Positions 1-48,926 of a stretch of DNA of 64,000 nt are shown here, one piece after another (the stretch's first letter is position 1; each line of letters begins with the position of its first letter). The notes beneath the pieces are model-generated. The model did not search any database. It had not been told where the DNA came from and saw nothing but the letters and a program-made list of their open reading frames with translations. The DNA lies in assembly GCA_963844965.1 (NCBI GenBank), contig CAWJQC010000009.1, forward strand, positions 62,037 to 126,036, in the 5' to 3' direction. The stretch is from an uncultured bacterium (lineage in GTDB: Bacteria > Patescibacteriota > Minisyncoccia > UBA6257 > 2-01-FULL-56-20). The translations under genes were made by a program, and so were the position numbers.

Positions 1-1487
1 TCGTCTTTTTTCCCTCAAAATTCAAGCGTGCAACGACTTCCGCCGCGCACTCGGCAAATTCCCTTACCTCGTTCCATTGGGGCAAAATAAAGTCATTCTG
101 GCGCTCTCCCGCCTCTGGCGGCTTTGGCATCCTGCTTTCCAGTAAAGCAACCCGTGCCCGTAAATCGCTCTTGTATTCCTTCAGCTTCTCCATGCCTATC
201 AGCCCCGCCCCGTATGCCCTGTCATAGCGAGCTTCCTCGTCTTTCAACTTCTCAACGTCCCTTTTGAAATTGAAAATGGATATATCGGGGCGCGCCGCGC
301 TTTCTTTCTTTTTCCCGATAAACTTCTGCGCGTTTTTCATCATCAGTTCCGGCGAAGTCATAATCCCTGCCGTCTTTTTCCATACGAGCGCATCGGCTAT
401 CCTCGCGTTTATTCCCCGCTCGGCGCACTTCGGAGGCAAGGGGAAGCTGTGAACCCTATCCGTGCAGCGATAATAAAGATGTTTCCCGCGCTGCGGGCCT
501 TCTCCGGCCCGCCTTCTCCCGCATCCGCAGTAAATCTTCCCGCTCAAAAGATACTCGTTTTTCCGGTTTCGCTGGCACTCCGCGAAATTTACCGCAAGTT
601 GCCGCGCCGCCCGCTCAAATAATTCTCGGCTGATGAGGGCGGGTGTCGTTATTTTTATCCACTCCTCCTCCGGCCTCACCTTGCGGCTCGTCTTTTTGAT
701 TCTCCGGTAGCCCTCTTTCTTAAACGGATTCTCCGGCACGACGGCATAAGAGCTTCCATAATGCCCTTCGCCTATGTAGGTTTTATTCCTCAAAAGCGTT
801 GAAAGGGTGCTGGTATTCCAAACGCCCCGCGCGCTCCAGCGCGGCGCTATGCCCGCTTTCATAAGCTCCTTCACAACCTGCCGCAAAGTAAGCCCGTCAT
901 CGGCAATCCACGAAAATATCTTTTTAACAACGGTTGCCTCTTGTTCGTTGATTTCATAGCAGCCATGTTTCCCATCCGTTTCTTTTTTCGGCTTAAAAAT
1001 ATAGCCGTAGGGAGCTTCGCTGGTAATAATATGCCCCTCTTTTGCCTTCCGCAGTTTCCCAAGCCGGAAGCGCTCGGCGATTTTCGCCCTCTCATACTCG
1101 GCAAAAAGCCCCCTAACACCGTGCAGGATTTTCTCCTCGCTATTTTTCGGACGGAATGGTAACGAACAATACTTCAACTCCCGCCTCCCGTAGTTCGTCC
1201 ATCACCAATTCCTGATAAGAGTAGCGGCGGGCCAACCTATCTGGGTCATAAATCAAAACCGCTTCCCATATCTTCTTTTTCACGTCCTGCCGGAGCTGGT
1301 CGAGTTGAGGCCGCACGAGCGTGTCCCCGCTCCAGCCGTTATCAATGTATTCCTGCACGATGGTGTAGCCATTTTTCACGGCAAACTCCCGAACGGCGAC
1401 AAGCTGGGTTTCAATAGTGCCTTCATCCGGCGAGGTGCTGACACGGGCGTATATGGCAATCAATTTTATGATGGCGGCTTCGTTCAT
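1..1487 (-). CDS. large serine recombinase (resolvase-type catalytic domain + recombinase domain + Zn ribbon + coiled coil); runs past window start; frame broken at an A5 run near 1140-1160
   Basis: ORF 1140..1487 is a resolvase N-terminal catalytic domain (IAIYARVSTS, catalytic Ser). My manual translation of minus strand 1..1160 in the neighbouring frame is stop-free. It reads ILHGVRGLFAEYERAKIAERFRLGKLRKAKEG...SEAPYGY...GKIYCGCG...HLYYRCTDR, which is a recombinase domain plus Zn ribbon. The frames meet at ccgaaaaatagc; one extra A would fuse them. Confidence 0.8.
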
Positions 1488-9059: not shown

Positions 9060-10328
9060 ATGAATAAAAAAATTGTTTTTACGGCCGCTTCGGCCGCATT
9101 TCTGCTCGTAGTTTTATTGGCAAACGCCCAAATGCCGGTTCCTGCCGCTAATAACGCAGAAGCGTCTGGTGTCGGCACGGTGGCATCGAGCGCAACCGCA
9201 ACGGTTGTTCCTGGAGCCATGAATCCAACTTTTATCATCAACCCGGTATCTCCAACGCTTGGCGGAAGTAATTCTTCGGGAACACCGGTCATGAATCCGC
9301 CGATTATAGCAAGACCCATATTGCCGCCGACGCAGGGCAATAATATTATCCAATTCAACAACCTAACCGTACAAAGCGTTTCGGCAACCACCCCGCCGGC
9401 AGAAATTGTAGCCAATGGCGGTATCTATAACATTCAGAGCGGCGGCACAACACCGCCAACGATGCAGCCGATGAATGCGCAAGTTTTCCCGCAAGCCACG
9501 CAGACATCTTCAATGAATTATTTGCAATCCAAATGTTTGAGGTATGAAAGTTTAGAGTCAAATTCCCCGATGGTAATCGCCTGCCCTGTTCCTCAAACTT
9601 CCGCTCCCGCGAGTTCAACCGTCACTGTCTCGCCCGGAGCAACCGCAATAATGCCAGTAGTGCCACCGATATATCGCGGCGGACAATATCGTCTTGAGGT
9701 ATCCACAACGACCCACCTCATGTTTAATGACCGTACATCGGCGGCATTAACCGATTTCTCGCCCGGCGATCAAATAAACGTTTACGGCATATACAATGAG
9801 GACGGAACCGTAGACGCGCTTATCGTTCGCAATCTTTCCAAGCCGTTCACAAAGCAGTTTGTCCAGCTCAACAACGTTAATTTGGTTTCGGTCTCGGCGA
9901 CAACCACTCCGGCAACGCTTGTGGTCGCGCAGCAAATCGCCAATCCCTGTTACGGTTTCGGCACCGATGGTAACACTAGGCAGGGAGCCATAGCCTGCCC
10001 CACGGGACTGCAATCGTTATCCGACAATGCCGCGTCGCAGAATGTCACGGTGCCGCAAGCCATAATGCCCATTTTCAACCAATCGCGGAAGTATGTGATA
10101 CAAATCGACACGCAAACAATACTGATGGACCGTGAGCGGGGTACACTCGCGCTTGGTGATCTCAAGATTGGTGATCAATTGAATATTTACGGCGCGACGC
10201 TGGACACAAACGGCGCGACGATTAATGCGGATATCGTCCGCGACCTCACGCAACCTCCGGTGGCGCAGAACTACAGTGGCCGCGTTACTCAGGTGAACGC
10301 CGACGGCTCGTTCGTGATTCAGAACTGA
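9060..10328 (+). CDS. secreted repetitive protein with signal peptide; probably continues to about 10448 after a +1 frameshift
   Basis: It starts MNKKIVFTAASAAFLLVVLLANA. The second half shows internal repeats, for example QINVYGIYNEDGTVDALIVRNL and QLNIYGATLDTNGATINADIVRDL. After the stop, the +1 frame reads TDGGETYTVQNPIQVGATVQLKGLL. Confidence 0.5.
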   Translation: MNKKIVFTAASAAFLLVVLLANAQMPVPAANNAEASGVGTVASSATATVVPGAMNPTFIINPVSPTLGGSNSSGTPVMNPPIIARPILPPTQGNNIIQFNNLTVQSVSATTPPAEIVANGGIYNIQSGGTTPPTMQPMNAQVFPQATQTSSMNYLQSKCLRYESLESNSPMVIACPVPQTSAPASSTVTVSPGATAIMPVVPPIYRGGQYRLEVSTTTHLMFNDRTSAALTDFSPGDQINVYGIYNEDGTVDALIVRNLSKPFTKQFVQLNNVNLVSVSATTTPATLVVAQQIANPCYGFGTDGNTRQGAIACPTGLQSLSDNAASQNVTVPQAIMPIFNQSRKYVIQIDTQTILMDRERGTLALGDLKIGDQLNIYGATLDTNGATINADIVRDLTQPPVAQNYSGRVTQVNADGSFVIQN

Positions 10329-14165: not shown

Positions 14166-15254
14166 CTATGCGGCGTGCGGGAAAGTGACACGCACGATTG
14201 TGCCCTTATTAAGCTTGCTTTTTATGTTTATGCGCCCGCGGTGCAGTCGCACGATTTCGTTCACGAGCGCCAGGCCCAAGCCGGCGTGACCAGTGACTTT
14301 CGCGTCTTCTTTTTCGCTGCCTTCGCCCGTTCGGCCGGCGCGATAAAACGGTTCCATAATTTTGGGAAGGTCTTCGGGACTTATGCCCCTGCCGTTGTCT
14401 TTGACCGTCAATTCAACTTCGCCCTGATTATTTTTAACCACGGAAACCATGACGGAACCGCCGGCGGGAGTGTAAGAAATGGCGTTATCCAGTAGATTTT
14501 TGACCATTTGTTCCAGCGCTGCGGGATTCCCCCAGATCTGCACCCAGTCGTATTTCGCGGACGCCAGCCTTATTCTTTTCTCCTTTATCGTTTTTGACCA
14601 CTCCGTTTCTCTTTTTACCATCAACGAAACAAGCTCCGAAAAATTCAGCTTATAAAAAGGCGTCTGCGAGCGATTCGCGTATCTGGCGATGAACAGGAGA
14701 TTCTCAATGATCTTCGCCATCCTGTCCACTTCCTCCACGTTGCTCTTTACAAGCTTTACGGCGTCAGCAAGCGTCTCATCTGACGCGCCGCCGCGCAAAA
14801 AAATTTCCGAACTTGTTTTAATGATGCTGAGGGGCGTGCGGAGCTCGTGCGCGGCGTCCGCCATAAACCTTTTTTGGTCCTCCATCGTCTTTTTTACCGG
14901 CCGCAGAACCACGTTCGTGGCGAAATACAGGAGAACACTCGCTGCCGCACCGATAAAAACTTCAATGTAATTTTCCCTCCTGTCGATTTCGTTGAATTCC
15001 GCGGCCAACAGGCCCCTTTCTTCCTGACTGAGAGCGCGCGAATTTTCTATGGTTACCAGCGCCTGCTGCCTTTCGTAGCCGAACACGGCGTCCACGACGA
15101 GCGTGAAGACGATTATGCTCAAAATCGCCGCTATGACCAGCTTAAATCTTGCGGATTGCAAAACTTCTTCCCTGAAAAACCGCTCGCTCCCCCTCCAAGT
15201 CCTATCCTTTGAACTTGTAGCCCACGCCGTGAATTGTTTCCAGTAGGTCCTCAT
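14166..15254 (-). CDS. two-component sensor histidine kinase
   Basis: TM region. The HisKA motif is AAHELRTPL. The HATPase motifs are NLLDNAISYT...DNGRGI...GLGLALV. Confidence 0.85.
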   Translation of the reverse strand: MRTYWKQFTAWATSSKDRTWRGSERFFREEVLQSARFKLVIAAILSIIVFTLVVDAVFGYERQQALVTIENSRALSQEERGLLAAEFNEIDRRENYIEVFIGAAASVLLYFATNVVLRPVKKTMEDQKRFMADAAHELRTPLSIIKTSSEIFLRGGASDETLADAVKLVKSNVEEVDRMAKIIENLLFIARYANRSQTPFYKLNFSELVSLMVKRETEWSKTIKEKRIRLASAKYDWVQIWGNPAALEQMVKNLLDNAISYTPAGGSVMVSVVKNNQGEVELTVKDNGRGISPEDLPKIMEPFYRAGRTGEGSEKEDAKVTGHAGLGLALVNEIVRLHRGRINIKSKLNKGTIVRVTFPHAA

Positions 15255-23071: not shown

Positions 23072-23461
23072 TTATTCTTTGGGAAAAGATTCCTTCACGA
23101 TAATGTCGTTCTTCTCGTATGGCCCAGAACTGGGCGGCTCAATTTCATTGCAGAGCTTAGTCTTGCCATGATTATTATACAAACCAAACTCTATATCCAA
23201 TCTATTGTTCTCATCTGAAACCTTGGCGTATCTATAATATGGCGACCTGCCACTTTTAAAAACCTTGTCTTTTATGCACTTATTGTTTTTATAATGATCT
23301 GATAATCTGTCCTTTATTAAGTCCTGACCGACATAAACAGGGAATCTCTTGTCTGTTTCTAGATTGCGGTAGCCAATCAAATAAACTCCATCAAAATTTA
23401 GATTGGCAAAATTGTCATCATTAAATTTTTTTGGACCAGACCAAGTAACGGTGAACTCCAT
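23072..23461 (-). CDS. hypothetical protein with GIY-YIG-like motif, last gene of the lexA-hsd operon
   Basis: DGVYLIGYRNLETDKRFPVYVGQDLIKDRLSDH fits GIY-(10-11)-YIG followed by R and H. It is separated from hsdS by 1 nt. Confidence 0.4.
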   Translation of the reverse strand: MEFTVTWSGPKKFNDDNFANLNFDGVYLIGYRNLETDKRFPVYVGQDLIKDRLSDHYKNNKCIKDKVFKSGRSPYYRYAKVSDENNRLDIEFGLYNNHGKTKLCNEIEPPSSGPYEKNDIIVKESFPKE

Positions 23462-23462
23462 C

Positions 23463-24833
23463 TTATTTTTTACTCTCTATCATTTCTTCGACCTTTAGCT
23501 TGGCTTCTTCTAATAATTCTTTTGCTTTTTTGCGGGCGGCGTGAGATTCGCGAATAAGTTCGGCGATTTTTTGCTGGGTTGGTTTGGGCAAAATTGGAAT
23601 TACAATATTCTCAACATCTTGATCGGTAATAGTTGGATAAGATGTGCCCGTTGTTGGTTTTTCCATTTGCAACTTACCGATGACGGACCGCAAAACAACC
23701 TGTAGATATTCGCGCGTCGGAGACGGGACTTCAAAAACCGAGAAGGCGCCACTCGCAACAAAGTTTTTGCTCCAGCTATCGGGCACGATTGCGATGGCAC
23801 CACGAGTGGGTCGAACTTTTGAAATCAACAGCTCGCCCCCGACAATTTTAATCTTGGCATTTGCGGGCAACTCTTTACCCAAGATCAAGTTACTAGAAAT
23901 TGCTCCGTTTCCAACGTTAACGTCGCTAATCTCGATATATTCGTATTGGACATCGGGCGCAAGCCCTGCCCGCCTTGCTGTTCGCTTAGCAATTTTGCCA
24001 AGAGGTTTTACATTTTCCCCCAAGAGTTTTATTAACTTTTGATACTTCGGCTGGAAAAATTCGGCGTCAATGCGATTCGCTTTTTTTGCTTCGGACAAAT
24101 TAACCACGCTCCATAATTCATTTTCCGATTCAAAATTCTTAAGCCCCAATTCTTCCAAAAGTAAATTTTCTGCTTGAGAGTATAGGGCATTTGCTTGATC
24201 CAAAGTGTTCTTGGCCCCAATCACCACATTGTTGATATCTTTGACGAATGCTTCTGATGGAATCGGATAAATCAAATCATAAACATCCTGGACATTTAAT
24301 TTGGGTTGAGCGTTCCCGCTAATTCTCCTCATAATCTGAGCAAAACCAAACCTAGAATTTAGAAAGGTTAACAGAAATATTTTTTGCTCCGGCATCACTT
24401 TCGAGTTTTTGAACTTGATACCGATGTTATTCTCACTTATATTACAAACTTCAAATTCTTCTGGCACGGCAGATACAATACCAATCGTGTTGCCAACTTT
24501 AGACATTATCAAGTCGAAGGGAGAAAGCTGAGATTGCTTTAGTCGGTCATTGTCCTTTTTTGAAATATATATGAGCTCGGTTTTATCAAGAAAAAAGTTT
24601 TGCAAATCAGAAATTCTCAAAAAAGGAATACCACTACTTACATAGGCACTACTTTTTAACGAGGAGCCGAAAGGGCCACTAACAACAACAGCGCTTTCTT
24701 TTAAGGTTTGTGTTCCGCCAGAAAATGATTTTATTTCGTTTATTAATTTCAAATACTCCGGCTGATAATATTCCGCATCCAGCCGGTACGCACCCTCCAG
24801 TTGAGATTTTTGGATGATAGAATAACTAACCAT
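23463..24833 (-). CDS. hsdS: type I restriction-modification specificity subunit HsdS (two target-recognition domains)
   Basis: 456 aa. The conserved RLDAEYYQPEY and IDAEFFQPKYQ repeats flank two variable TRDs. Confidence 0.85.
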   Translation of the reverse strand: MVSYSIIQKSQLEGAYRLDAEYYQPEYLKLINEIKSFSGGTQTLKESAVVVSGPFGSSLKSSAYVSSGIPFLRISDLQNFFLDKTELIYISKKDNDRLKQSQLSPFDLIMSKVGNTIGIVSAVPEEFEVCNISENNIGIKFKNSKVMPEQKIFLLTFLNSRFGFAQIMRRISGNAQPKLNVQDVYDLIYPIPSEAFVKDINNVVIGAKNTLDQANALYSQAENLLLEELGLKNFESENELWSVVNLSEAKKANRIDAEFFQPKYQKLIKLLGENVKPLGKIAKRTARRAGLAPDVQYEYIEISDVNVGNGAISSNLILGKELPANAKIKIVGGELLISKVRPTRGAIAIVPDSWSKNFVASGAFSVFEVPSPTREYLQVVLRSVIGKLQMEKPTTGTSYPTITDQDVENIVIPILPKPTQQKIAELIRESHAARKKAKELLEEAKLKVEEMIESKK

Positions 24834-25487
24834 TTATTTTCTATTCTCTTTTTTGAATTTAACCAGCTTGGCCATTATTGAATCATTTAAAACTATAGCT
24901 TTTTCAATAAATCTTTCGCAAAGCCTTATCTCTTTTCGCATTGTTTCCAGCCACGTCTTTTTGGTTAAAGATTTTTTTGATATTGGCCTAAAACTCCTGT
25001 CATAACCAGAAACAGCGGTGTCATAATAAATACGGTGAGTTAACATCTTTCGCTTTACTAATATCTCATGCATAACTTTGTCTTCGTTGAATTTCTCTAG
25101 ATCTTTTTTAACCGAAGATTTTCTGACCATAGAATCTTCAGTAAGTTTATTGAATAAAGAAGCTTTTTCTGAAAATTGCAGATCAAGAGAGGCGTTTATA
25201 AGTTGGCAAATTTTTTCCCTATACGAAAACGCTCTCAACCAAAAATTTTCCAGGTGGTAGCCCAGGGATTCAAAATCAGTTTCCTGATGAATCGGTGATA
25301 GCCAGCCCTTGCCTGTCATAATTATTTTCGCAGTCCTTTCACAAAGCAGGTACGTCCTGGCTGCCCTACTATAAACGTCAATCAAATCGGATATTTCTTG
25401 ACGGACCTCATTGTGATAGGCTTTCGCTTTCTTGGGAAACAATCGCCTATCAAAATCAAAAAATGGTTGCCCTTTTGTTTTTTTCAT
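24834..25487 (-). CDS. hypothetical protein inserted between hsdM and hsdS; HEPN-like Rx4H motif (candidate Abi-type effector)
   Basis: 217 aa. KRKMLTHRIYYD contains R-x4-H. Its position between hsdM and hsdS is typical of embedded defense genes such as PrrC or Abi. No protein-level match is recognised. Confidence 0.4.
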   Translation of the reverse strand: MKKTKGQPFFDFDRRLFPKKAKAYHNEVRQEISDLIDVYSRAARTYLLCERTAKIIMTGKGWLSPIHQETDFESLGYHLENFWLRAFSYREKICQLINASLDLQFSEKASLFNKLTEDSMVRKSSVKKDLEKFNEDKVMHEILVKRKMLTHRIYYDTAVSGYDRSFRPISKKSLTKKTWLETMRKEIRLCERFIEKAIVLNDSIMAKLVKFKKENRK

Positions 25488-25498
25488 TATTTTTTATC

Positions 25499-26806
25499 TC
25501 AAAAATCGAATTTTTGTTCCTTGGTAAATTTCACGAATGCCTCGGCGATTTCGTCCAAGTCGTGGTCAAGCACCTTACGGCCTTTAGAGCCGTGCACATA
25601 ACTACCGTTCGCGTCTTTTTTATAAATATAGTCACCAGAATTATCTTTGCTACCTTTTTTAGAGACCGCCATGAAAATTGGATAATCCTTTTGCGGTTTG
25701 CCAGTGTCGCCGCCCCATTTTTGTAAAAAGAGCACGCTTGTTTTTGTGCCGGTATGCGGCTTGAACGTGTTACCGTGAAGCCCGACGACGGCAAGAATAC
25801 GCGCTTTTTCAAAAAGCCACTCACGGATATATTCCATGTTGGTGTTGTTAAGCACGCCTTGCGGCAGAACGATTGCCAAGCGGCCGCCGGGACGGAGCAT
25901 GTCCAATGCGCGTTCAATAAATAAAATGTGTCGCTCAACGTTATTGCGAAGCTTACCTCCTTCTTTTTTTGCCAGTTCGTACTGGCGCAGAAGTCCCTGC
26001 TCCGGATTTTCTCCGGCGAAGGGCGGATTCGTGAGCAATATATCAAAATTCAAATGCCGATAGGTCAGATGATTTTCCTTGTCGCTTTCGCTATTATCCA
26101 AGGTTTGCAACAGAGGTTTAAGCGCCACGCGTGCTTCTTCCGCCTCCGGACCAGTCCACTCCCGCGAATCCAACGAATCACGTTTGAAAATATGGTGCTT
26201 GCCATCGCCAGCGATAAGCATTAATGCCTGCGATATCCGGCGCATGTTGTCGTCAAAGTCAATGCCAAAAAGATATTTTGCGGCGTAGGATTTTTTCGCC
26301 GCTTCGGTTTTTGAAAAATTGTCCCAGACATGATACATCGCGTGAAGGAGGAATCCGCCAGAGCCGCATGCCGGATCTACCACGTATTCGTTTTCTTTCG
26401 GGCTGAGCATCTTTACGCACATTTTAATGACATGCCGCGGCGTGAAATACTGCCCCTTTTTTCCCTTAGAAACTTCGGTGATGAGATGCTCAAACGCTCC
26501 ATCCACAATCTCGTATTCGCCCTGCCCAAGCTCAAATAAGCGAATATTTTCCACGAACGGCACGCAGATGTTAAGGCGTGCGGCGGTAAGCTTGATTTTA
26601 TCCGATGGTTCGAATGTGTCGGGCCACTCCTTGACCGCTTCCTTAAAAAGCCCGTTTACAACCTCGTAGGTTTTTTCGGCGTCTTTATATCTTCTAAACA
26701 ACACCTCCCTACTTTCCCTTTCTCGGATAGCCATTTGCTCATCGTAGAGCTTGGCGTAAATAAGCTTGAAGATTCTCTTCAAAAACATTACCGCCGGAGC
26801 CGGCAA
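25499..26806 (-). CDS. hsdM: type I restriction-modification N6-adenine DNA methyltransferase HsdM
   Basis: The protein is 435 aa. It has the AdoMet motif VVDPACGSGGFL and the catalytic motif LLTNPPFAG. Confidence 0.9.
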   Translation of the reverse strand: MPAPAVMFLKRIFKLIYAKLYDEQMAIRERESREVLFRRYKDAEKTYEVVNGLFKEAVKEWPDTFEPSDKIKLTAARLNICVPFVENIRLFELGQGEYEIVDGAFEHLITEVSKGKKGQYFTPRHVIKMCVKMLSPKENEYVVDPACGSGGFLLHAMYHVWDNFSKTEAAKKSYAAKYLFGIDFDDNMRRISQALMLIAGDGKHHIFKRDSLDSREWTGPEAEEARVALKPLLQTLDNSESDKENHLTYRHLNFDILLTNPPFAGENPEQGLLRQYELAKKEGGKLRNNVERHILFIERALDMLRPGGRLAIVLPQGVLNNTNMEYIREWLFEKARILAVVGLHGNTFKPHTGTKTSVLFLQKWGGDTGKPQKDYPIFMAVSKKGSKDNSGDYIYKKDANGSYVHGSKGRKVLDHDLDEIAEAFVKFTKEQKFDF

Positions 26807-27452
26807 GCGCTAATTCTTCTATACGCTTGACGACTTTTATGAAGTCAAACTTCGGGGTCAAATCGCTCCACGTTTTCTTAATTTCAAACAAATCGTCCAC
26901 TGTTTGATCGGCCGTTGGAATCTCGCTCAATGATTCATATTCTTTCGGATAGGGACGATATAAAATTACTTTATCCGTGCCGTTAGACCAGATGCCGATC
27001 TCCGACCCCTCCGCGCTCAAATACGCTTTTAATTGTTCCTGCCCTTTCTTTTCGCTGGGCGCCTTAACTTCGACAATAATGTACGGTGTGATTTTATCTT
27101 TCTTGTAAACAACGATGTCCGCGGCCTTTGCGTGAATTTCTCGTCCAAAGTGGATGCTTTTTTCTGTTTCCATTCGCTCAAACGGATATTTGTAGTTGGT
27201 GTGAAGTTTATATAACCAGAGTTGGCGGACGATTTCCTCCGGCCTGCCTGCGTTTTTCTTGGCATCAAAAACTAAACGTTTTTTACCGCTTTTCAGGTCG
27301 GCGATGAAAAAACGGCTTGGTTCGTCTTCGGTAATTTCGAGCGCCGCGTTAAATTCTACGCCCTCAAACTCTTTGAGACCGTAGAGCAGCTCGGTATCCT
27401 TAAAAATCTTTCCAATTATTTCCTCTGCTTTGTTTTGTTTTTTGGTGGGCAT
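26739..27452 (-). CDS. stand-alone HsdR N-terminal-like PD-(D/E)xK nuclease domain protein (HSDR_N family)
   Basis: 237 aa. KAADIVVYKKDKITPYIIVEVKAPS...QLKAYLSAEGSEIGIWSNGTDKV matches the HSDR_N pattern D..v...iivEvK...Q...Y...G..tNG. It overlaps the hsdM start. No helicase-type HsdR is present in the window. Confidence 0.6.
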   Translation of the reverse strand: MPTKKQNKAEEIIGKIFKDTELLYGLKEFEGVEFNAALEITEDEPSRFFIADLKSGKKRLVFDAKKNAGRPEEIVRQLWLYKLHTNYKYPFERMETEKSIHFGREIHAKAADIVVYKKDKITPYIIVEVKAPSEKKGQEQLKAYLSAEGSEIGIWSNGTDKVILYRPYPKEYESLSEIPTADQTVDDLFEIKKTWSDLTPKFDFIKVVKRIEELALAGSGGNVFEENLQAYLRQALR

Positions 27453-27453
27453 A

Positions 27454-28095
27454 TTATCTTATCGGTTGCCAATAGTTATTTTTAAGCACCGAGATAATTT
27501 TTCCTTTGAGTTCCATCTCGTGGGTAAAAGGAATCAGCTCGTACTTTGGGTTTTCGGGCTTAAGGTACACGTATGGCGGTTTGTCGTCGGACATGAATCG
27601 CTTTATCGTGCCCTCGTCGCCGATTTGGGCATAGACTATTTCACCGGATACGAATTCTTTTTTTGTTTGAACTAGCACGGCGTCGCCGTCGTCAATACCC
27701 GCGTTTATCATCGAATCGCCGGAGACTTTGAGCATAAACACCTCTTCCGCCAATCTGGAAATCTCTTGAGAAACTGGCTGCCATTCACCGGAAATTTCTA
27801 TCGACTGAATCGGAGCCCCGGCGCTTGTTATGCCAAGAAAGGCCGCGAGGGGCGGTCTACCGAGCATCTCATACCCCAAAGGCAATATGGCTAATCCTCT
27901 AGCAGCTCCTTCTTTTCTTTGTATTATTTTATTTTTCTCAAGCTTATTGAGAAGATCTAAAACTGATTGATTTGAGGAAACGCCTAGACTTTCTCGCATT
28001 TCATCAAAAGTCGGTGGATGGCCATCGCTCTTAATATATGAGTAAATAACCTCTAAAAGCTGCTTTTGTCTTGGTGTTGTTATATTTTTCATCAC
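27454..28095 (-). CDS. lexA: LexA repressor (S24 peptidase)
   Basis: N-terminal winged HTH. An AG site lies in the linker (TSAGAP). The C-terminus has GDSMINAGIDDGDAVLV...GTIKRF, which is the Ser-Lys dyad. Its stop is 1 nt from the next gene's ATG. Confidence 0.85.
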   Translation of the reverse strand: MMKNITTPRQKQLLEVIYSYIKSDGHPPTFDEMRESLGVSSNQSVLDLLNKLEKNKIIQRKEGAARGLAILPLGYEMLGRPPLAAFLGITSAGAPIQSIEISGEWQPVSQEISRLAEEVFMLKVSGDSMINAGIDDGDAVLVQTKKEFVSGEIVYAQIGDEGTIKRFMSDDKPPYVYLKPENPKYELIPFTHEMELKGKIISVLKNNYWQPIR

Positions 28096-28099
28096 TTAC

Positions 28100-28128
28100 A
28101 TTATACCCGACTATATATTCAGTTACAA
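28100..28128 (-). promoter_or_regulatory. candidate lexA promoter (TTGTAA-17-TATAAT) with near-palindromic AACTGAATATATAGTCG between the hexamers
   Basis: rc reads attgTAACtgaatatatagtcgggTATAATgtaagtgATG. The -10 ends only about 7 nt before the ATG. Confidence 0.35.
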
Positions 28129-28265
28129 TGCGGGTTTATGCACAACCCCTTTTTGGCTGTTTTTTCCAGTAACTCCCACTTTTCCGCGGATTTTTCCGGA
28201 GTAGTAGAAACTCGACAGGCTGGCGCTGGAAGAAAAAGTCGAGTTTCACCACCCCGCATAGCACC

Positions 28266-33676: not shown

Positions 33677-36200
33677 TTAAACCAATACCTTCCTAAGATA
33701 CTGTCCGGTGAAGCTCCCTGCCCTGCGGCTGATTTGCTCCGGCGTGCCTAGGGCGACAATCTTGCCGCCCTTCTCGCCGCCTTCGGGACCGAGATCAACC
33801 ACCCAGTCGGCGCATTTAATAACGTCCAAGTTATGTTCAATCACAACGACCGTGTTGCCGCGGTCAACAAGCTTTTGCAGAACCAAAAGCAGTTTATCCA
33901 CGTCGTCAAAATGTAGGCCGGTCGTCGGCTCGTCCAAAAGATAAAGGGTGCGGCGCGTGTCACGTTTACCGAGCTCCGCCGACAAGTTTCATCCGCTGTG
34001 CCTCGCCGCCGGACAATGTCGTTGCCGACTGGCCAAGCGTCAAGATAGTCCCAAGCCGACCTCTTCCAAAATCAAGAGCTTGTCGTGGAGCCACGGGATA
34101 TCATTGAAGAAATCCACCGCTTCTTCAATCGTCATCTTTAAAATGTCATAAATATTTTTCCCTTTATATTCACACTTCCAGCGTTTCGCGGTCAAACGTT
34201 TTCCCTTGCAAACATCGCAGGTGACGATAGACCGTCGGCAGGAAATGCATTTCAATCGCAATCGTGCCGTGCCCTTCGCAATTTTCACACCGCCCGCCCG
34301 GCACGTTGAAACTGAACCGGCCCGGTTTATATCCGCGGACTCGAGCATCCTCCGTGGCCGCAAAAGATCGCGGATATAAGTCCACGCGCCTACATAAGTC
34401 GCGGGATTTGAACGCGGCGTCCTGCCGATCGGCGACTGGTCAATGTTGATAACACGATTAACATATTCCACGCCCGAGATCGCTTTTATGCCACCCGCTT
34501 TGTAATTGCGCGTGATAAAATTTATCGGCCAGATTTTTATAAAGCACGTCGTATACCAAGCTGATTTACCCGAACCGGAAACGCCGGTGACCGCCGTAAA
34601 ACGCCGGAGCGGGATATCCACGTCAATATTTTTCAGGTTATTCGCGCGTCGCGCCACGAATCTTCAGGAATTCATGCGCTTCGGAGATATTTCCGCTTCG
34701 CGTTTCTGGAACTTCAATGAATTTTTTGCCGCGAAGATATTGCAGCGTGAGCGAATCTTCTTCTTTATCCTTTATGATGTCTGGCAATCGGCCTGTCGGC
34801 TACGATTTTTCCGCCATGAATGCCCGCCCCCGGACCGATATCCACCAAATAATCCGATTCGCTGATTGTTTCCTCGTCGTGCTCAACGACGATGATCGTA
34901 TTCCCCAAATCGCGCAGATTGTGCAGGGTCGCGATCAATTTGGCGTTGTCCCGCTGATGGAGACCGATTGTCGGCTCGTCCAAAATATAGAGCGTGCCTA
35001 CGAGCCGCGAGCCGATCTGCGACGCCAAGCCGAATTCTCTGCGCCTCGCCGCCAGACAGCGTGCCCGCTTTCCTGTCAAGCGTCAGATAATCCAAACCGA
35101 CGTCCATCATGAATTTCAGCCGGCTTTTGATCTCGCGAAGCGGTGCTTCGGCAACGGCCTTCCGCTTTCGCTTTTCAGACTTAAACCTCCGAAAAAATTC
35201 ATAGTGCTTCGTCGATGGAGAAGCGCAGTGACGGAGTTAATATTTTTGTCGTTTACGAGTACGTTCAAGCTTTCTTCCTTGAGCCGCTTGCCTAGGCAGA
35301 CCGGACAGATTTCCTCCGACCAAATATCCTTCGTTCCCAAACCGTGGCAGGCGGGACAAGCGCCGTACGGGCTATTGAACGAAAAAAGTCGCGGCTCAAT
35401 TTCCGGGAAAGAAAAGCCGTCGTGCGGACAGGTGAATTGGGCGGAAAGCGAGACTTCCTTGTCGGTGATAACCGTAACGACGTCGTTGCCGTATTTGAGC
35501 GCCGATTCGATCGCTTCGGCAAGACGCAAACGATTATCCTTATCGCTGAAATCTATTTCCGCCGGCAACCGGTCGACGACAAGCTCAATCGTGTGCTGCT
35601 TATAGCGGCTGAGTTCAATGCGATCGCGCAGTGATTGAAATTTGCCATCTATGCGCACTTCGGAAAAACCGGCGTTCAGAAAATCGTAAAGCATTTGGTA
35701 ATATTCCCCTTTCCTGCCACGCACGACCGGCGCCAAAATCACCAGATTTTTCCCTTCTTTGTCGTTTTTCGCGATATCGATCGCCACATCAACGATTTCC
35801 TCGTTCGTAAGTTTCTTGATTTCCCTGCCGCAGCGCGGGCAGAAAGGTTTGCCGACACGCGCGAAAAGAACACGGAGATAATCATAGATCTCGGTGATGG
35901 TTGCTACCGTGGAGCGTGGATTGGAGGAATGGCTTTTCTGGTCAATGGAAATCGCCGGCGAAAGTCCCTCAATCTCGTCCACGTCAGGTTTGTCCAGACG
36001 TCCCAAAAACTGCCGCGCGTAGGCGGAAAGCGACTCAATGTAGCGCCTTTGTCCTTCGGCGAAAATCGTGTCAAAGGCCAAACTGGACTTGCCGGACCCG
36101 AAAGACCGGTGAAAACTATCATTTTGTCGCGCGGGAGCTCAAGATTAATATTCTTAAGGTTGTGTTCCCGCGCACCTTTTATGATAATTTTGTCATGCAT
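33677..36200 (-). CDS. uvrA: excinuclease ABC subunit A (UvrA), split into at least 5 ORFs by single-nucleotide frameshifts
   Basis: The five ORFs (35904..36200, 35116..36081, 34765..35110, 34040..34657, 33677..33985) together give a colinear UvrA with Walker A, CxxC Zn modules, ABC signature and the second ATPase domain. At Walker A, gggtccgg reads GLSGPAS; adding one t restores [23 protein letters not shown], so this is a homopolymer indel. Confidence 0.85.
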
Positions 36201-36363
36201 AGTAATGTAAATAAGAAAATTGCCCCCGTTCCCAGCTTGCAGGGGGGTCTATAGAGTCAAGTTTAATCTAATCTAATTGACCGAAAAAATCAAATTATCT
36301 ATACTAAGGGCGGCACATTAGCAACAGAAAAGTGGATTACCACCGTGCCAAAGGAGGCAATTT

Positions 36364-36888
36364 ATGGGTAAGAACGAAAAAAACACGGACGGATCTTGCG
36401 GATGGAGTTATCACAGAAAACTGGGTCAAATCGCAAAATTTATGAAAATTCTGGGTGTCCTGCTCCTTCTGACTCTGAGAACTATCCCCGCATGGGCAGC
36501 GCTCGGTCAGTACGAGTCGTCAGTAAGTGTGGACCAGCAGTATCTGCGCAGCGAGGACCGCGTCCAGAACTTCCAGGGTTACAAAATTCACCAGCTAACG
36601 ACTGCGAACGGCACAATAATTCGAGAGTACGTCTCGCCGAAAGGTCTGGTCTTTGGAGTCGCCTGGCAGGCGCCCTTTATGCCCAACATGCAGCAGTTGT
36701 TGGGGTCATACGTTACGAACCTCCAGACAGCCTCGCGAACTCAGACCCAGGTCCGGCACCTCAGGGGACTGATCGTGAAAATGAATGATTTCGTGTTCGT
36801 CAGCGGCGGTCACATGCGGTTTTGGAAGGGAAGCGCCTACGTGCCCAGCCTAGTTCCCAACAACGTCTCCGTGGAGGTGGTGCGATGA
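36364..36888 (+). CDS. secreted hypothetical protein (DUF2844-like, recalled), partner of the downstream lipoprotein
   Basis: The probable start is MKILGVLLLLTLRTIPAWA, a signal peptide. The GC content is visibly higher than the flanks. Its stop overlaps the next ATG as ATGA. Confidence 0.45.
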   Translation: MGKNEKNTDGSCGWSYHRKLGQIAKFMKILGVLLLLTLRTIPAWAALGQYESSVSVDQQYLRSEDRVQNFQGYKIHQLTTANGTIIREYVSPKGLVFGVAWQAPFMPNMQQLLGSYVTNLQTASRTQTQVRHLRGLIVKMNDFVFVSGGHMRFWKGSAYVPSLVPNNVSVEVVR

Positions 36889-38224
36889 CTCTGGTAAATT
36901 GTTCGAAAGCAACATTAGCCTGCTTTCTTGCAGTAGTCACGGGACTGATCCTTTTGGATGGTTGCGGCAACAATAATAGCAACAGCAACATTATCAGTAC
37001 ACCTCCTCCGCCTACGAGTAATACAGCGCCAGTAACGGTCGGCTTTGGGGTCTTGGGACCGTCGGGTGGATATGTGAATGGGATTTGGACGACGGTGACC
37101 ATCTGTGCACCCAGCAGTACCACCAATTGCCAGACGGTCAATGATGTACTCGTGGACACAGGTTCCTTCGGCCTACGCGTTCTCAACTCAGCGCTCACCA
37201 CCGTTCCAGCGAGCTCGCTGGGAACGATTACGAGCAACGGCAGTCAGTTGCAGGAATGTGTCCAGTATGGGGACACAGCCTATACTTGGGGACCTGTGAT
37301 GCTGGCGGATGTTGGGATTGAGGGAGAGAAGGCCTCCTCAATTCCTATTCAGGTCATTGGAGGCAATTCATTCGATGTCCCTGGTGCTTGCACCGCAATC
37401 CCAATTAACCCCGGTCTTCCAAATGCGGGCAACGACGATACCTTAGACGCGCTTGGCGCCAACGGGATCCTGGGTGTCGGCGGTTACGCATGGGACTGCG
37501 GCCCTACTGCGAGAACGTTGTTGCTGGTGACCCCTATTACCTTTGTCCCAGCGGCCAATGCGAGCAAGTCGGGGTTCCACTCCAGTATCAAGTCACAAGC
37601 CCGGTCGCAGCGTTTTCCTCGTCGGATAACAATGGAGTGTTAATCACCCTGACGTCCATTTCGGCGAGCGGAGCTGCCGATGGGACGGTTTCTGGCTCGT
37701 TGATTTTTGGAATCGGAACCCAAACTGACAACGCCCTCGCTGGTAGCGCCACGGTTTATGGGGTCGACGAGTACGGCAACATTCCAGAGATTACCTACAA
37801 CGATTTCCAATACACCCCTCCCAACAACACGAACATCTTAGATACCGGATCGAATGCGATCTATTTTCTGGACGCCAACACCCTGGCCTCGGCTGGAATT
37901 ATCGAGTGCGCGGATGCCCCGGGTTTCTATTGTCCAAACAATACTATTCCGTTCACTACAACCTTTTCGGGCGCGAACGGCACATCGGGGGCGATAACGT
38001 TCAGCATTGCGGATGCGAATATATTGTTCGCAAGCGGCAACGCGGCGTTCAACGACTTGGGAGGCGATGGTGGCACCAGCCCTTCTAATGATAGTTTGGA
38101 CTTCGGATTGCCATTTTTCTTCGGTAAGAGCGTGTACGTCGGAATGATGCCGGGATTGTTCACGGGTGAGAGCGCTGCGCCAAGCGCCGCGACAAGCGCG
38201 ACGTACGGATATTACGCGTTTTAG
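36885..38224 (+). CDS. pepsin-like (A1-type) aspartic peptidase lipoprotein; frameshift near 37500
   Basis: Lipobox LILLDGC. The first catalytic motif is VLVDTGSFGLRV. The flap is ECVQYGDTAY (Tyr-Gly). The second motif is NILDTGSNAIYF, found in ORF 37490..38224. The two ORFs join colinearly. Confidence 0.55.
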
Positions 38225-46780: not shown

Positions 46781-48926
46781 TTAACTCGCGCTTTGCGCTT
46801 TTCCGCCACGGGAAAACTCCCGTTTTCCCGACCCCTTTCCCGCGCGAGTTAGCAGTAATTTCAATGATTTTATCTCATCGCGAAGGATTGCCGCCAATTC
46901 AAAATCTAAGCGCTTTGCCGCTTCGCGCATTTCCTTTTCTTTTTCGGCAATCAGTTTCTGCAACGCGGTCTTGGACTTCGGTATCGGCTTCAGTTCCAAC
47001 GCCAGCATCTCATCAACATTCGGCAGAATATCGGAGATTTTTTTCTCTATCGTCTTCGGCGTAATATGGTGTTTTTTATTGTATTCAAACTGAAGTTTGC
47101 GCCGGCGTTCGGTTTCGGCCACCGCGCGTTTGATTGAACCGGTGATGTAATCGGCATAGATCAAAACTTCGCCGTTAACATTACGCGACGCTCTGCCAAT
47201 CGTCTGTATAAGCGACGTTTCACTTCGCAAAAATCCTTCTTTGTCGGCGTCCAAAATCGCCACAAGCGAGACCTCCGGCAGGTCCAACCCTTCGCGCAGG
47301 AGGTTGACGCCTACGAGCACATCAAATCCGCCGCGCACGCCGGAACCTTTGCGCAAATTAGTCAGAATCCTTATACGGTCAAGCGTTTTTACGTCGCTAT
47401 GCAAGTAAGTCACGTTGATTTTCTTTTCCTCCAGATAGGCCGCGAGGTCTTCCGCCATTCTTTTGGTTAGTGTGGTCACGAGAACTCGTTCCTTGTTCCT
47501 AACCCGTTCCTCCATGCGCGGGATTAAGTCATCAATCTGTCCGCGCGCCGGCCGCATGGTAATTTTGGGGTCAACCAAACCGGTGGGACGGATGATTTGC
47601 TCCACCGTTTGCGCGCTTTTTTTGCGCTCGTCAGCGGTCCGGCGTCGCCGAAGTATAAACGACCTGCCTGACTTTCGCTTCAAATTCCGGGAATTTCAGC
47701 GGCCTGTTATCTATCGCGGACGGCAGGCGAAAACCGTATTCAACCAGCGTCTTTTTGCGCGATGCGTCGCCCTCGTACATCCCTTGAATTTGCGGAACGG
47801 TCATGTGCGATTCATCAATAACCGTCAAAAAGTCCGGCGCGCCCGAATCGGTCCGCGGAAAGTAGTCCAAAAGAGTGTCCGGCGGCTCGCCCGCGGCGCG
47901 GCCCGACAAATGCCGCGAATAATTTTCAATCCCGTGGCAGTAGCCGACTTCCCGCATCATGGCGATGTCAAACTTCGTGCGCCGTTCAAGACGCTCGGCT
48001 TCAAGCAATTTGCCGCTCTTTTCAAAATATGCGAGCCGTCCCTTCAATTCTTCCAAAATCGCGGCAATTGCCCGTTCACGTTCCGGCGCCTCGGTTATGA
48101 AGTGCTTTGCCGGCGCTACGTAAATCTCGCGCAGTGTCGGCATTTTGTCCGGCTGAAACCCTACGACGGGGTCAACTTCGTAGATTTTTTTGATTATTTT
48201 TTCGCTGGCCGATCCGGATTTTACCGAAGAATGTTCTAGTTCAAAATTGTAAACTACTTCCTTGTCCGGCGGCATAATTTCCCAGTTATCGCCGCGCAAA
48301 CGGTATGTCCCGCGTTTCAGGTCGGAATTAGTCCGCGTAAACTGAAGCGAAACGAGTTTCCGCGCGAACTCTTCGCGTTTTATTTTGTCGCCGACTTTAA
48401 AGTGAAAAATGTTCTGTGCGTAAACTTCGGGCGCGCCCAAGCCATAGATACAGGAAACAGAAGCGACAACAATCACATCGCGCCGCGTTAGGAGCGCTGT
48501 TGTCGCCGCGTGGCGGAGCTTGTCTATCTCGTCGTTAATCAGCGCCTCCTTGTCTATGTAGGTGTCGCTAGACGGAATATACGCTTCCGGCTGGTAATAA
48601 TCGTAATAGGAAACGAAATAATTGACGGAATTTTTCGGAAAAAGTTCACGGAATTCGTTCGTAAGCTGCGCCGCCAGGGTTTTGTTGTGAGCGATAACGA
48701 GCGTCGGCTTCTGGATTTCCGCGATAACGTTCGCCACGGTAAATGTCTTACCGCTCCCCGTAACACCCAAAAGCGTCTGGTCTCTGTACCCTCTTTGCAG
48801 ACCGGAAACAAGCGACTTAATCGCCTTTGGCTGGTCGCCTGACGACTTGTATTTGGATATGATTTGAAAATTGTTCATTGAAAATTGTGCGGTCTGAAAC
48901 CCAAACGCCCCTCGGTCCGTAGCCAT
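46781..48926 (-). CDS. uvrB: excinuclease ABC subunit B (UvrB); frameshift near 47631-47683
   Basis: ORF 47631..48926 holds the N-terminal helicase domain ([15 protein letters not shown]). ORF 46781..47683 holds helicase C and the UVR motif ([16 protein letters not shown]). They are colinear. Confidence 0.9.

Follow-up and report, generated by a model that had tools for sequence, protein, structure and literature searches.

A nuclease–methyltransferase fusion gene, probably split by one extra base, in a lexA-linked restriction–modification cassette of Patescibacteria

We analysed a 64,000-nucleotide (nt) stretch of DNA from an uncultured bacterium of the Patescibacteriota (contig CAWJQC010000009.1 of assembly GCA_963844965.1, positions 62,037 to 126,036; hereafter the window, within which all coordinates are given), where a compact group of minus-strand genes encodes components of restriction and modification. 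In their order of reading, these are lexA (27454..28095), the gene that we call RM because it joins both activities, a HEPN gene (24834..25487), a gene for an HsdS-like specificity subunit, S (23463..24833), and an open reading frame (ORF) of 129 amino acids (aa) at 23072..23461, with gaps of 0–11 nt between neighbours. As assembled, RM appears as two ORFs: one of 237 aa at 26739..27452(-), which starts about 1–2 nt after the end of lexA, and one with an N6_Mtase domain at 25499..26806(-). The original prediction, with whose position we agree, took the first of these for a stand-alone nuclease that replaces HsdR next to hsdM. We find that it is very probably the nuclease end of a gene of about 650 codons for a nuclease::N6-adenine methyltransferase fusion that has been split here by one base.

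The nuclease assignment itself proved sound. Residues 71–179 of the 237-aa product match the Pfam family PF13588 (HSDR_N_2) over the full profile (positions 1–110 of 110; E=2.8e-23; 82.5 bits against a cutoff of 25), and the ORF has no helicase domain, just as had been foreseen. The motifs of the PD-(D/E)xK core lie at residues 111–116 (ADIVVY), 126–132 (IVEVKAP) and Q140..Y144. D112, E128, K130, Q140 and Y144 do not vary among 121 aligned sequences, and the catalytic set E97/D112/E128/K130 is invariant across 37 to 121 homologs. Judged by these residues, the domain is probably catalytic, and the suspicion that it might be a degenerate, inactive fragment was not borne out. A phmmer search with the 237-aa ORF alone gave no meaningful match among PDB sequences.

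The independence of this ORF is another matter. Removing one base at 26773..26776(-) places the nuclease ORF in frame with the N6_Mtase ORF and gives a product of 650 aa; the frame runs uninterrupted once GAAGAGAATC (26780..26771) loses one base, and the junction then reads GGNVFEEIFKLIYAKLYDEQ, a peptide that is identical in the closest homologs. As assembled, the tail of the nuclease ORF reads GSGGNVFEE-NLQAYLRQALR up to its stop, and the other frame reads MFLKR-IFKLIYAKLYDEQ. A DNA alignment with eight homologous genes shows GAGGA-AAT in the homologs and GAAGAGAAT in the window, that is, GAAGA(G/A)AATC with one base inserted in the window only. The native nuclease side comprises residues 1–226, followed by 11 out-of-frame codons up to the stop at 26739. 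In tblastn, residues 1–226 align at 100% identity to 27452..26775 and residues 224–650 at 99% to 26782..25502, so that the gene consists of a 5′ part with the N-terminal region and the HSDR_N_2 nuclease (26775..27452(-)) and a 3′ part with a gamma-type N6-adenine methyltransferase (25499..26782(-); residues from about 224 to 650). The 68-nt overlap with the start of hsdM that the original prediction described does exist (26739–26806), but because the TTG at 26806, the apparent start of the methylase ORF, is merely the first start codon past a stop in that frame, we read the overlap as the signature of a frameshift and not as two overlapping genes.

Homologs from elsewhere show what the undisturbed gene looks like. 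We searched the repaired 650-aa sequence against 5.8 billion proteins and considered the best 120 matches, which come mostly from Patescibacteria bins, measure 611–775 aa (nearly all about 650 aa) and share 73–90% identity over 94–100% of the length; all of them combine PF13588 with PF02384 and PF07669. The gene is a single-ORF fusion in 26 of 26 genome loci with a complete gene, and another 38 full-length copies from metagenome loci are likewise in one frame, so that the full-length copies examined are fusions in 64 of 64 cases. Across loci, RM identity ranges from 59% to 90% and spans many Patescibacteria lineages; viral contigs hold distant fusion relatives only (37–43% identity), none with an adjacent LexA. 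Frame breaks among the homologous loci are confined to L072 and L127. We considered L072, in which nuclease and methylase lie in different frames, as a natural two-gene arrangement and rejected it, as this copy has decayed, with a deletion and additional breaks.

To find true stand-alone relatives, we also searched the nuclease ORF alone against 1.84 billion representative proteins. Many short matches were returned, and the six that we inspected turned out to be fusions truncated by a contig end or a frameshift, which either end beyond the junction (VF.E.FK.IY) or do not reach it. It is thus very improbable that the 237-aa ORF has evolved into an independent HSDR_N-only subunit of a helicase-free Type I variant built from three separate proteins. 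Its domain is intact and catalytically competent by motif and no hsdR lies nearby, as such a subunit would have it, but the removal of one base carries its frame seamlessly into the methylase through the junction peptide of the closest homologs, the full-length copies are uniformly fusions, the short relatives in databases are remnants of fusions, and the ORF itself ends in 11 out-of-frame residues.

The extra base is most likely an assembly indel. Three conserved genes within these 64 kb hold at least 13 further frame breaks yet keep their protein motifs, which points to technical indels: uvrA (33680..36248(-)) takes at least 11 changes of frame to follow, with its Walker and signature motifs intact, uvrB is split into two overlapping ORFs, and a DUF3443 gene is split at about profile position 155 (46781..48926(-) and 36822..38224(+), respectively). 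The breaks in uvrA suggest either clustered indel errors or a very unusual pseudogene, and since the window holds many indels without substitutional decay, technical errors are favoured over old pseudogenes. Two observations weigh against an error: the base sits outside any long homopolymer, and most other long ORFs of the window are unbroken, which shows that errors are not spread evenly.

These same two observations can be turned in favour of a real and recent inactivating mutation, which would make this strain a restriction-minus, modification-plus variant; we regard this as unlikely, if well short of negligible. The strain would then make a nuclease fragment of 226 native and 11 out-of-frame residues, and re-initiation at the ATG at 26788 or the TTG at 26806 might yield a nuclease-less methylase that works with S. 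Both halves of the gene are otherwise open and 99–100% self-consistent, and L072 and the frame break in L127 indicate that decayed copies exist in nature. The frame breaks in the three other genes speak against it, as do the absence of the exact 237-aa product from the protein collection searched and the lack of any obvious, properly spaced ribosome-binding site before the internal starts, as read from the sequence. More remote still is programmed +1 ribosomal frameshifting or transcriptional slippage that joins the two ORFs as a regulatory device. The ORFs do overlap, and the full protein would result from a +1 shift at GAG-AAT, but the extra base occurs in no homolog, so the site is not conserved, and it offers neither a known slippery or shifty motif nor a homopolymer run.

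In the intact protein, the methylase part follows the gamma order, with motif I (DPACGSGGF) before motif IV (NPPFAG), both invariant in the aligned homologs, and it matches N6_Mtase (E=2.2e-38) and Eco57I (E=4.5e-12) in Pfam. Used as a single sequence, the repaired protein finds its best PDB match in RM.BsaXI (8w0p_A), a Type IIB enzyme, at E=3.4e-32, well ahead of the best Type I HsdM chains at about 1e-17. A family profile lifts this match to E=3.8e-42 and extends it over both domains, adding a nuclease-domain stretch (query 65–135 against BsaXI 41–112; 21.5 bits; independent E=6.5e-4) that is seen with the profile only; HsdM chains reach no better than 1e-21 in this comparison. In this alignment, E97, D112, E128 and K130 of the family correspond to E73, D90, E105 and K107 of BsaXI. 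Alanine at any of those four positions abolishes cleavage by BsaXI, and the four N-terminal residues are conserved across the Type IIB enzymes analysed in the same cryo-EM study (PMC11997821).

Downstream, the S gene encodes a 456-aa protein with a Pfam Methylase_S match (3e-9), a full-length PADLOC Specificity_I match (E=9.5e-42) and best PDB matches to the HsdS chains 3okg and 5ybb; its match to the NCBIfam model MAD5 (5.1e-48) is below cutoff. An S gene lies downstream of the fusion in every homologous locus with enough sequence, and the S subunits share 31–51% identity, as against 59–90% for RM. Models of the HsdR and REase_I type found no match among the 65 other ORFs of the window (64 kb of the genome), and HsdR-type models found none among 43 large ORFs that flank 26 homologous loci, where no family recurs. 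The only superfamily 2 (SF2) proteins seen were UvrB in the window and, 8 kb from the cassette in L001, a 413-aa DEAD-box helicase.

Given the homology to BsaXI with its catalytic residues, the HsdS-like gene and the absence of HsdR nearby, the system reads as an RM+S system like those of BcgI and BsaXI: a known kind of enzyme, represented in Patescibacteria by an uncharacterised family. The suggestion of a helicase-independent restriction variant was accordingly right in that neither the window nor the 26 loci yielded an HsdR-type match, but such a variant is not new, being the established Type IIB architecture (PMC11997821). The likeness is one of plan: a single chain that combines an N-terminal PD-(D/E)xK domain with a gamma-type N6-adenine methylase, an HsdS-like specificity subunit encoded separately, no ATPase or translocase, and a collinear match in which the methylase region begins at about 219–222 here and at about 227–233 in BsaXI. 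Within Type IIB, the 'RM + S' group of BcgI and others has an EcoKI-like methylase that ends in a lone helix packed on the S subunit (PMC11997821), and the length of 650 aa together with a predicted C-terminal helix fits that group. By analogy with these enzymes, two RM chains and one HsdS-like subunit, as (RM)2S, would bind a bipartite DNA site, the methylase domains would protect host sites, and flexible N-terminal nuclease domains would cleave DNA that lacks the modification, close to the site and with no need for ATP-driven translocation. Cuts to both sides of the site are likewise predicted from homology with BsaXI and BcgI.

Several points weigh against this assignment. The nuclease-domain similarity to BsaXI is modest, at the bit score and E-value given above; BsaXI is larger (916 aa), with knob and paddle elements for which a 650-aa protein has no room and which are presumably absent here; and S finds its closest matches among Type I HsdS chains. 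An AlphaFold2 model of a close homolog (P0001), built on a shallow alignment (37 sequences at ≥73% identity), was too poor for use, with a mean predicted local distance difference test (pLDDT) score of 60, values below 50 in the catalytic core and a predicted template modelling score of 0.39. PADLOC (2023) files the family as a 'Type I methyltransferase' (PDLC03034, 'MTase_I', a 672-position model matched at 550 bits) and not under Type IIB or IIG, so that defence-gene catalogues already list members of it as M subunits and pass over the nuclease domain.

The resemblance to Type I systems does go further, since the nuclease belongs to the family of the HsdR N terminus, the methylase matches N6_Mtase and HsdM, S is HsdS-like, and extra genes occur between M and S. 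The difference lies in the missing HsdR/SF2 motor, in whose stead the nuclease is fused to M, and in the match to the hsdM model TIGR00497, which reaches 50.6 bits against a cutoff of 242.75. The nearest NCBIfam models are MAD2 (304 bits; residues 67–622 against profile 15–615 of 654, thus taking in the nuclease as well as the methylase region) and MAD5 (164 bits over the full length), both from the MADS defence system of Pseudomonas aeruginosa, in which self is marked at a bipartite site by the mad2 methylase and the regulator gene mad1 leads the operon (bioRxiv 10.1101/2023.03.30.534895). Both scores fall far under the cutoffs of 720 and 400, the operon lacks MAD6–8, which the authors' detection model requires, and no ORF of the window matched mad6–8. 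We therefore rejected membership in MADS on score cutoffs and on the missing MAD6–8.

The slot between RM and S, compared across L001–L035, holds zero to two genes that differ from locus to locus. In the window it is occupied by the HEPN gene, which is Cthe_2314-like (PF18730; E=1.8e-11) and has RKMLTH (Rx4H) in its translation; elsewhere it contains genes such as DUF3800 (four loci), NYN (three), RnlA-toxin (two), Trypsin_2, DUF6602, CHAP and DUF4145. This looks like a place for exchangeable cargo of the toxin or abortive-infection type within the operon. The 129-aa ORF at the other side abuts the S gene, and its membership in the operon is uncertain. It has no match in Pfam, NCBIfam or PADLOC and no homolog in the other loci; by eye, its pattern GVYLIGY...YVGQ...R...H faintly recalls GIY-YIG nucleases.

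What precedes RM is far more constant. The window's lexA encodes 213 aa with a LexA_DNA_bind domain (2.9e-14) and a Peptidase_S24 domain (6.3e-24), and an alignment of 28 homologs shows no variation at the Ala-Gly cleavage site, the GDSM serine or the KRF lysine. A LexA homolog with 59–80% identity to that of the window lies immediately upstream of RM in 27 of 27 genome loci with upstream sequence. The reciprocal test, which started from LexA in metagenome contigs, gave 72 loci with assessable downstream DNA, and a restriction–modification module directly follows lexA in all 72 of them: the fusion in 63 (in five of which a 123-aa ORF lies between lexA and RM), a different 600-aa N6_Mtase together with a Methylase_S gene in four, N6_N4_Mtase with RE_TdeIII in three, and an Eco57I-type methylase with Tsp45I in two. 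The fusion still follows LexA homologs of only 43–48% identity. The lexA-linked loci are L001, L004, L008–L033 and L056–L134. The 123-aa ORF, which has no Pfam match, marks one sublineage (L001, at 9628..9999 of that locus, with equivalents in L062, L067, L098, L117 and L134).

This constancy bears on a further alternative, in which the intact family is a LexA-controlled methylase whose nuclease serves some other role linked to DNA damage, such as the processing of taken-up or damaged DNA. It would explain both the very high conservation (59–90% identity across many lineages) and the invariable place behind lexA, and the nuclease role of the whole family is a prediction from sequence. We nonetheless consider it improbable. 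Nine loci carry ordinary Type II pairs (TdeIII or Tsp45I) or the other M+S pair in the same position behind lexA, so the slot carries restriction–modification in general; the S subunits are highly variable, as expected if specificity diversifies; and the toxin-like cargo (HEPN, NYN, RnlA and DUF4145), together with neighbouring defence genes, is typical of defence loci. Type I-like families normally pair highly conserved R and M subunits with a variable S, so that conserved restriction and modification beside a variable S is the normal state of affairs.

If the family restricts and modifies DNA, as we favour, the question becomes how its expression is governed. The best promoter-like site between 22800 and 28300 (10 of 12 matches) is that of lexA, TTGTAA-17-TATAAT at 28100..28128(-), with a putative LexA operator between the -35 and -10 boxes. 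The operator core, ATAGTCGGGTA at 28104..28114, is the only exact copy in the window. Of 98 related loci, 83 have the consensus TTGACnnCnGAmyAwATrGTCGGGTAtaAT upstream of lexA, including loci with other restriction–modification types; in some loci the operator is a perfect palindrome, CCCGACTAnnTAGTCGGG, again between -35 and -10, and the candidate LexA-bound region is TTGAC..GTCGGGTATAAT. The operator resembles the GAAC-N4-GTTC type of LexA box. When further copies were sought beside uvrA, beside uvrB and elsewhere in the window, matches with up to two mismatches occurred at chance level; as the lexA copy alone is exact, a wider SOS regulon that uses this motif is not demonstrable in the window.

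A second motif is found in the same region. In many loci, GTTATCCACAG, which contains the DnaA-box consensus TTATCCACA, lies about 5–25 nt upstream of the -35 box of lexA (L008, L009, L012, L014, L016, L018, L019, L023, L031 and L032 are among them); the window has only TTATGCACA, at 28136..28144(+).

Taken with the tight spacing of the genes, lexA, RM, HEPN and S apparently form one operon read from a single LexA-operated promoter. The simplest reading is that the autoregulated lexA promoter also drives the restriction–modification genes, and a single promoter of this kind would put their expression under RecA/LexA control: LexA would probably repress the operon, and RecA-stimulated self-cleavage of LexA would raise its expression. 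This picture draws solely on gene position and motif conservation, which weighs against it. We put forward, as a tentative proposal, that lexA serves a large clade of Patescibacteria as the dedicated leading gene of an SOS-gated restriction–modification cassette with an exchangeable payload, and represses whichever module follows it. With the same reserve, DNA damage would induce restriction, modification and the embedded toxin genes by way of RecA-triggered self-cleavage of LexA, instead of their being expressed constitutively or under control of the C-protein type. The arrangement is like that of C-protein-controlled systems in having a small gene for a DNA-binding repressor immediately upstream, co-transcribed and with the operator inside its own promoter. 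It differs in its regulator, a full LexA whose S24 autoprotease is conserved, so that control would respond to RecA and DNA damage and not only to regulator dosage. A lexA operon and a variable toxin slot are not described for BcgI or BsaXI in the study of those enzymes (PMC11997821). Our literature search, whose coverage was partial, found no paper that joins LexA, restriction–modification and Patescibacteria or the Candidate Phyla Radiation, and the linkage may already be published.

The surroundings of the cassette vary as much as its cargo. Across the flanks of L001–L033, the neighbours differ in every locus, and those seen at single loci include MzaA, SduA (Shedu), a UG29 reverse transcriptase, LmuA and mad3- and mad8-like genes; from this variety of defence-gene neighbours, we conclude that the cassette often lies within defence islands. 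In the window, outside the operon, there is a PADLOC 'mad3' match (E=2.8e-11) whose source is perhaps, at a guess, a histidine kinase at 14166..15254. Other defence-type matches in the window are an SNase (C3a212), a patatin phospholipase and an HNH protein. Near the start of the window, an ORF at 1140..1487(-) carries the N-terminal domain of a serine recombinase (Resolvase; E=1.6e-23).

For annotation, the lesson is that where a draft genome shows an 'orphan nuclease overlapping hsdM', this is to be read as the signature of a frameshift, all the more in a stretch that holds as many frameshifts as this one, and the gene described here should be annotated as a disrupted RM fusion and not as a new restriction subunit. 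The family to which it belongs is a widespread and highly conserved group of BcgI/BsaXI-like enzymes in Patescibacteria, known so far from sequence. Genomes in this phylum are tiny, and restriction–modification is among the few defences found in these loci. With specificity placed in a separate and highly variable S subunit, the family could supply new specificities. More interesting than the nuclease itself is the operon of lexA and restriction–modification genes with its conserved operator: if control by LexA holds true, the fixed gene order and the near-invariant operator would link the SOS response to the control of restriction–modification in these bacteria.

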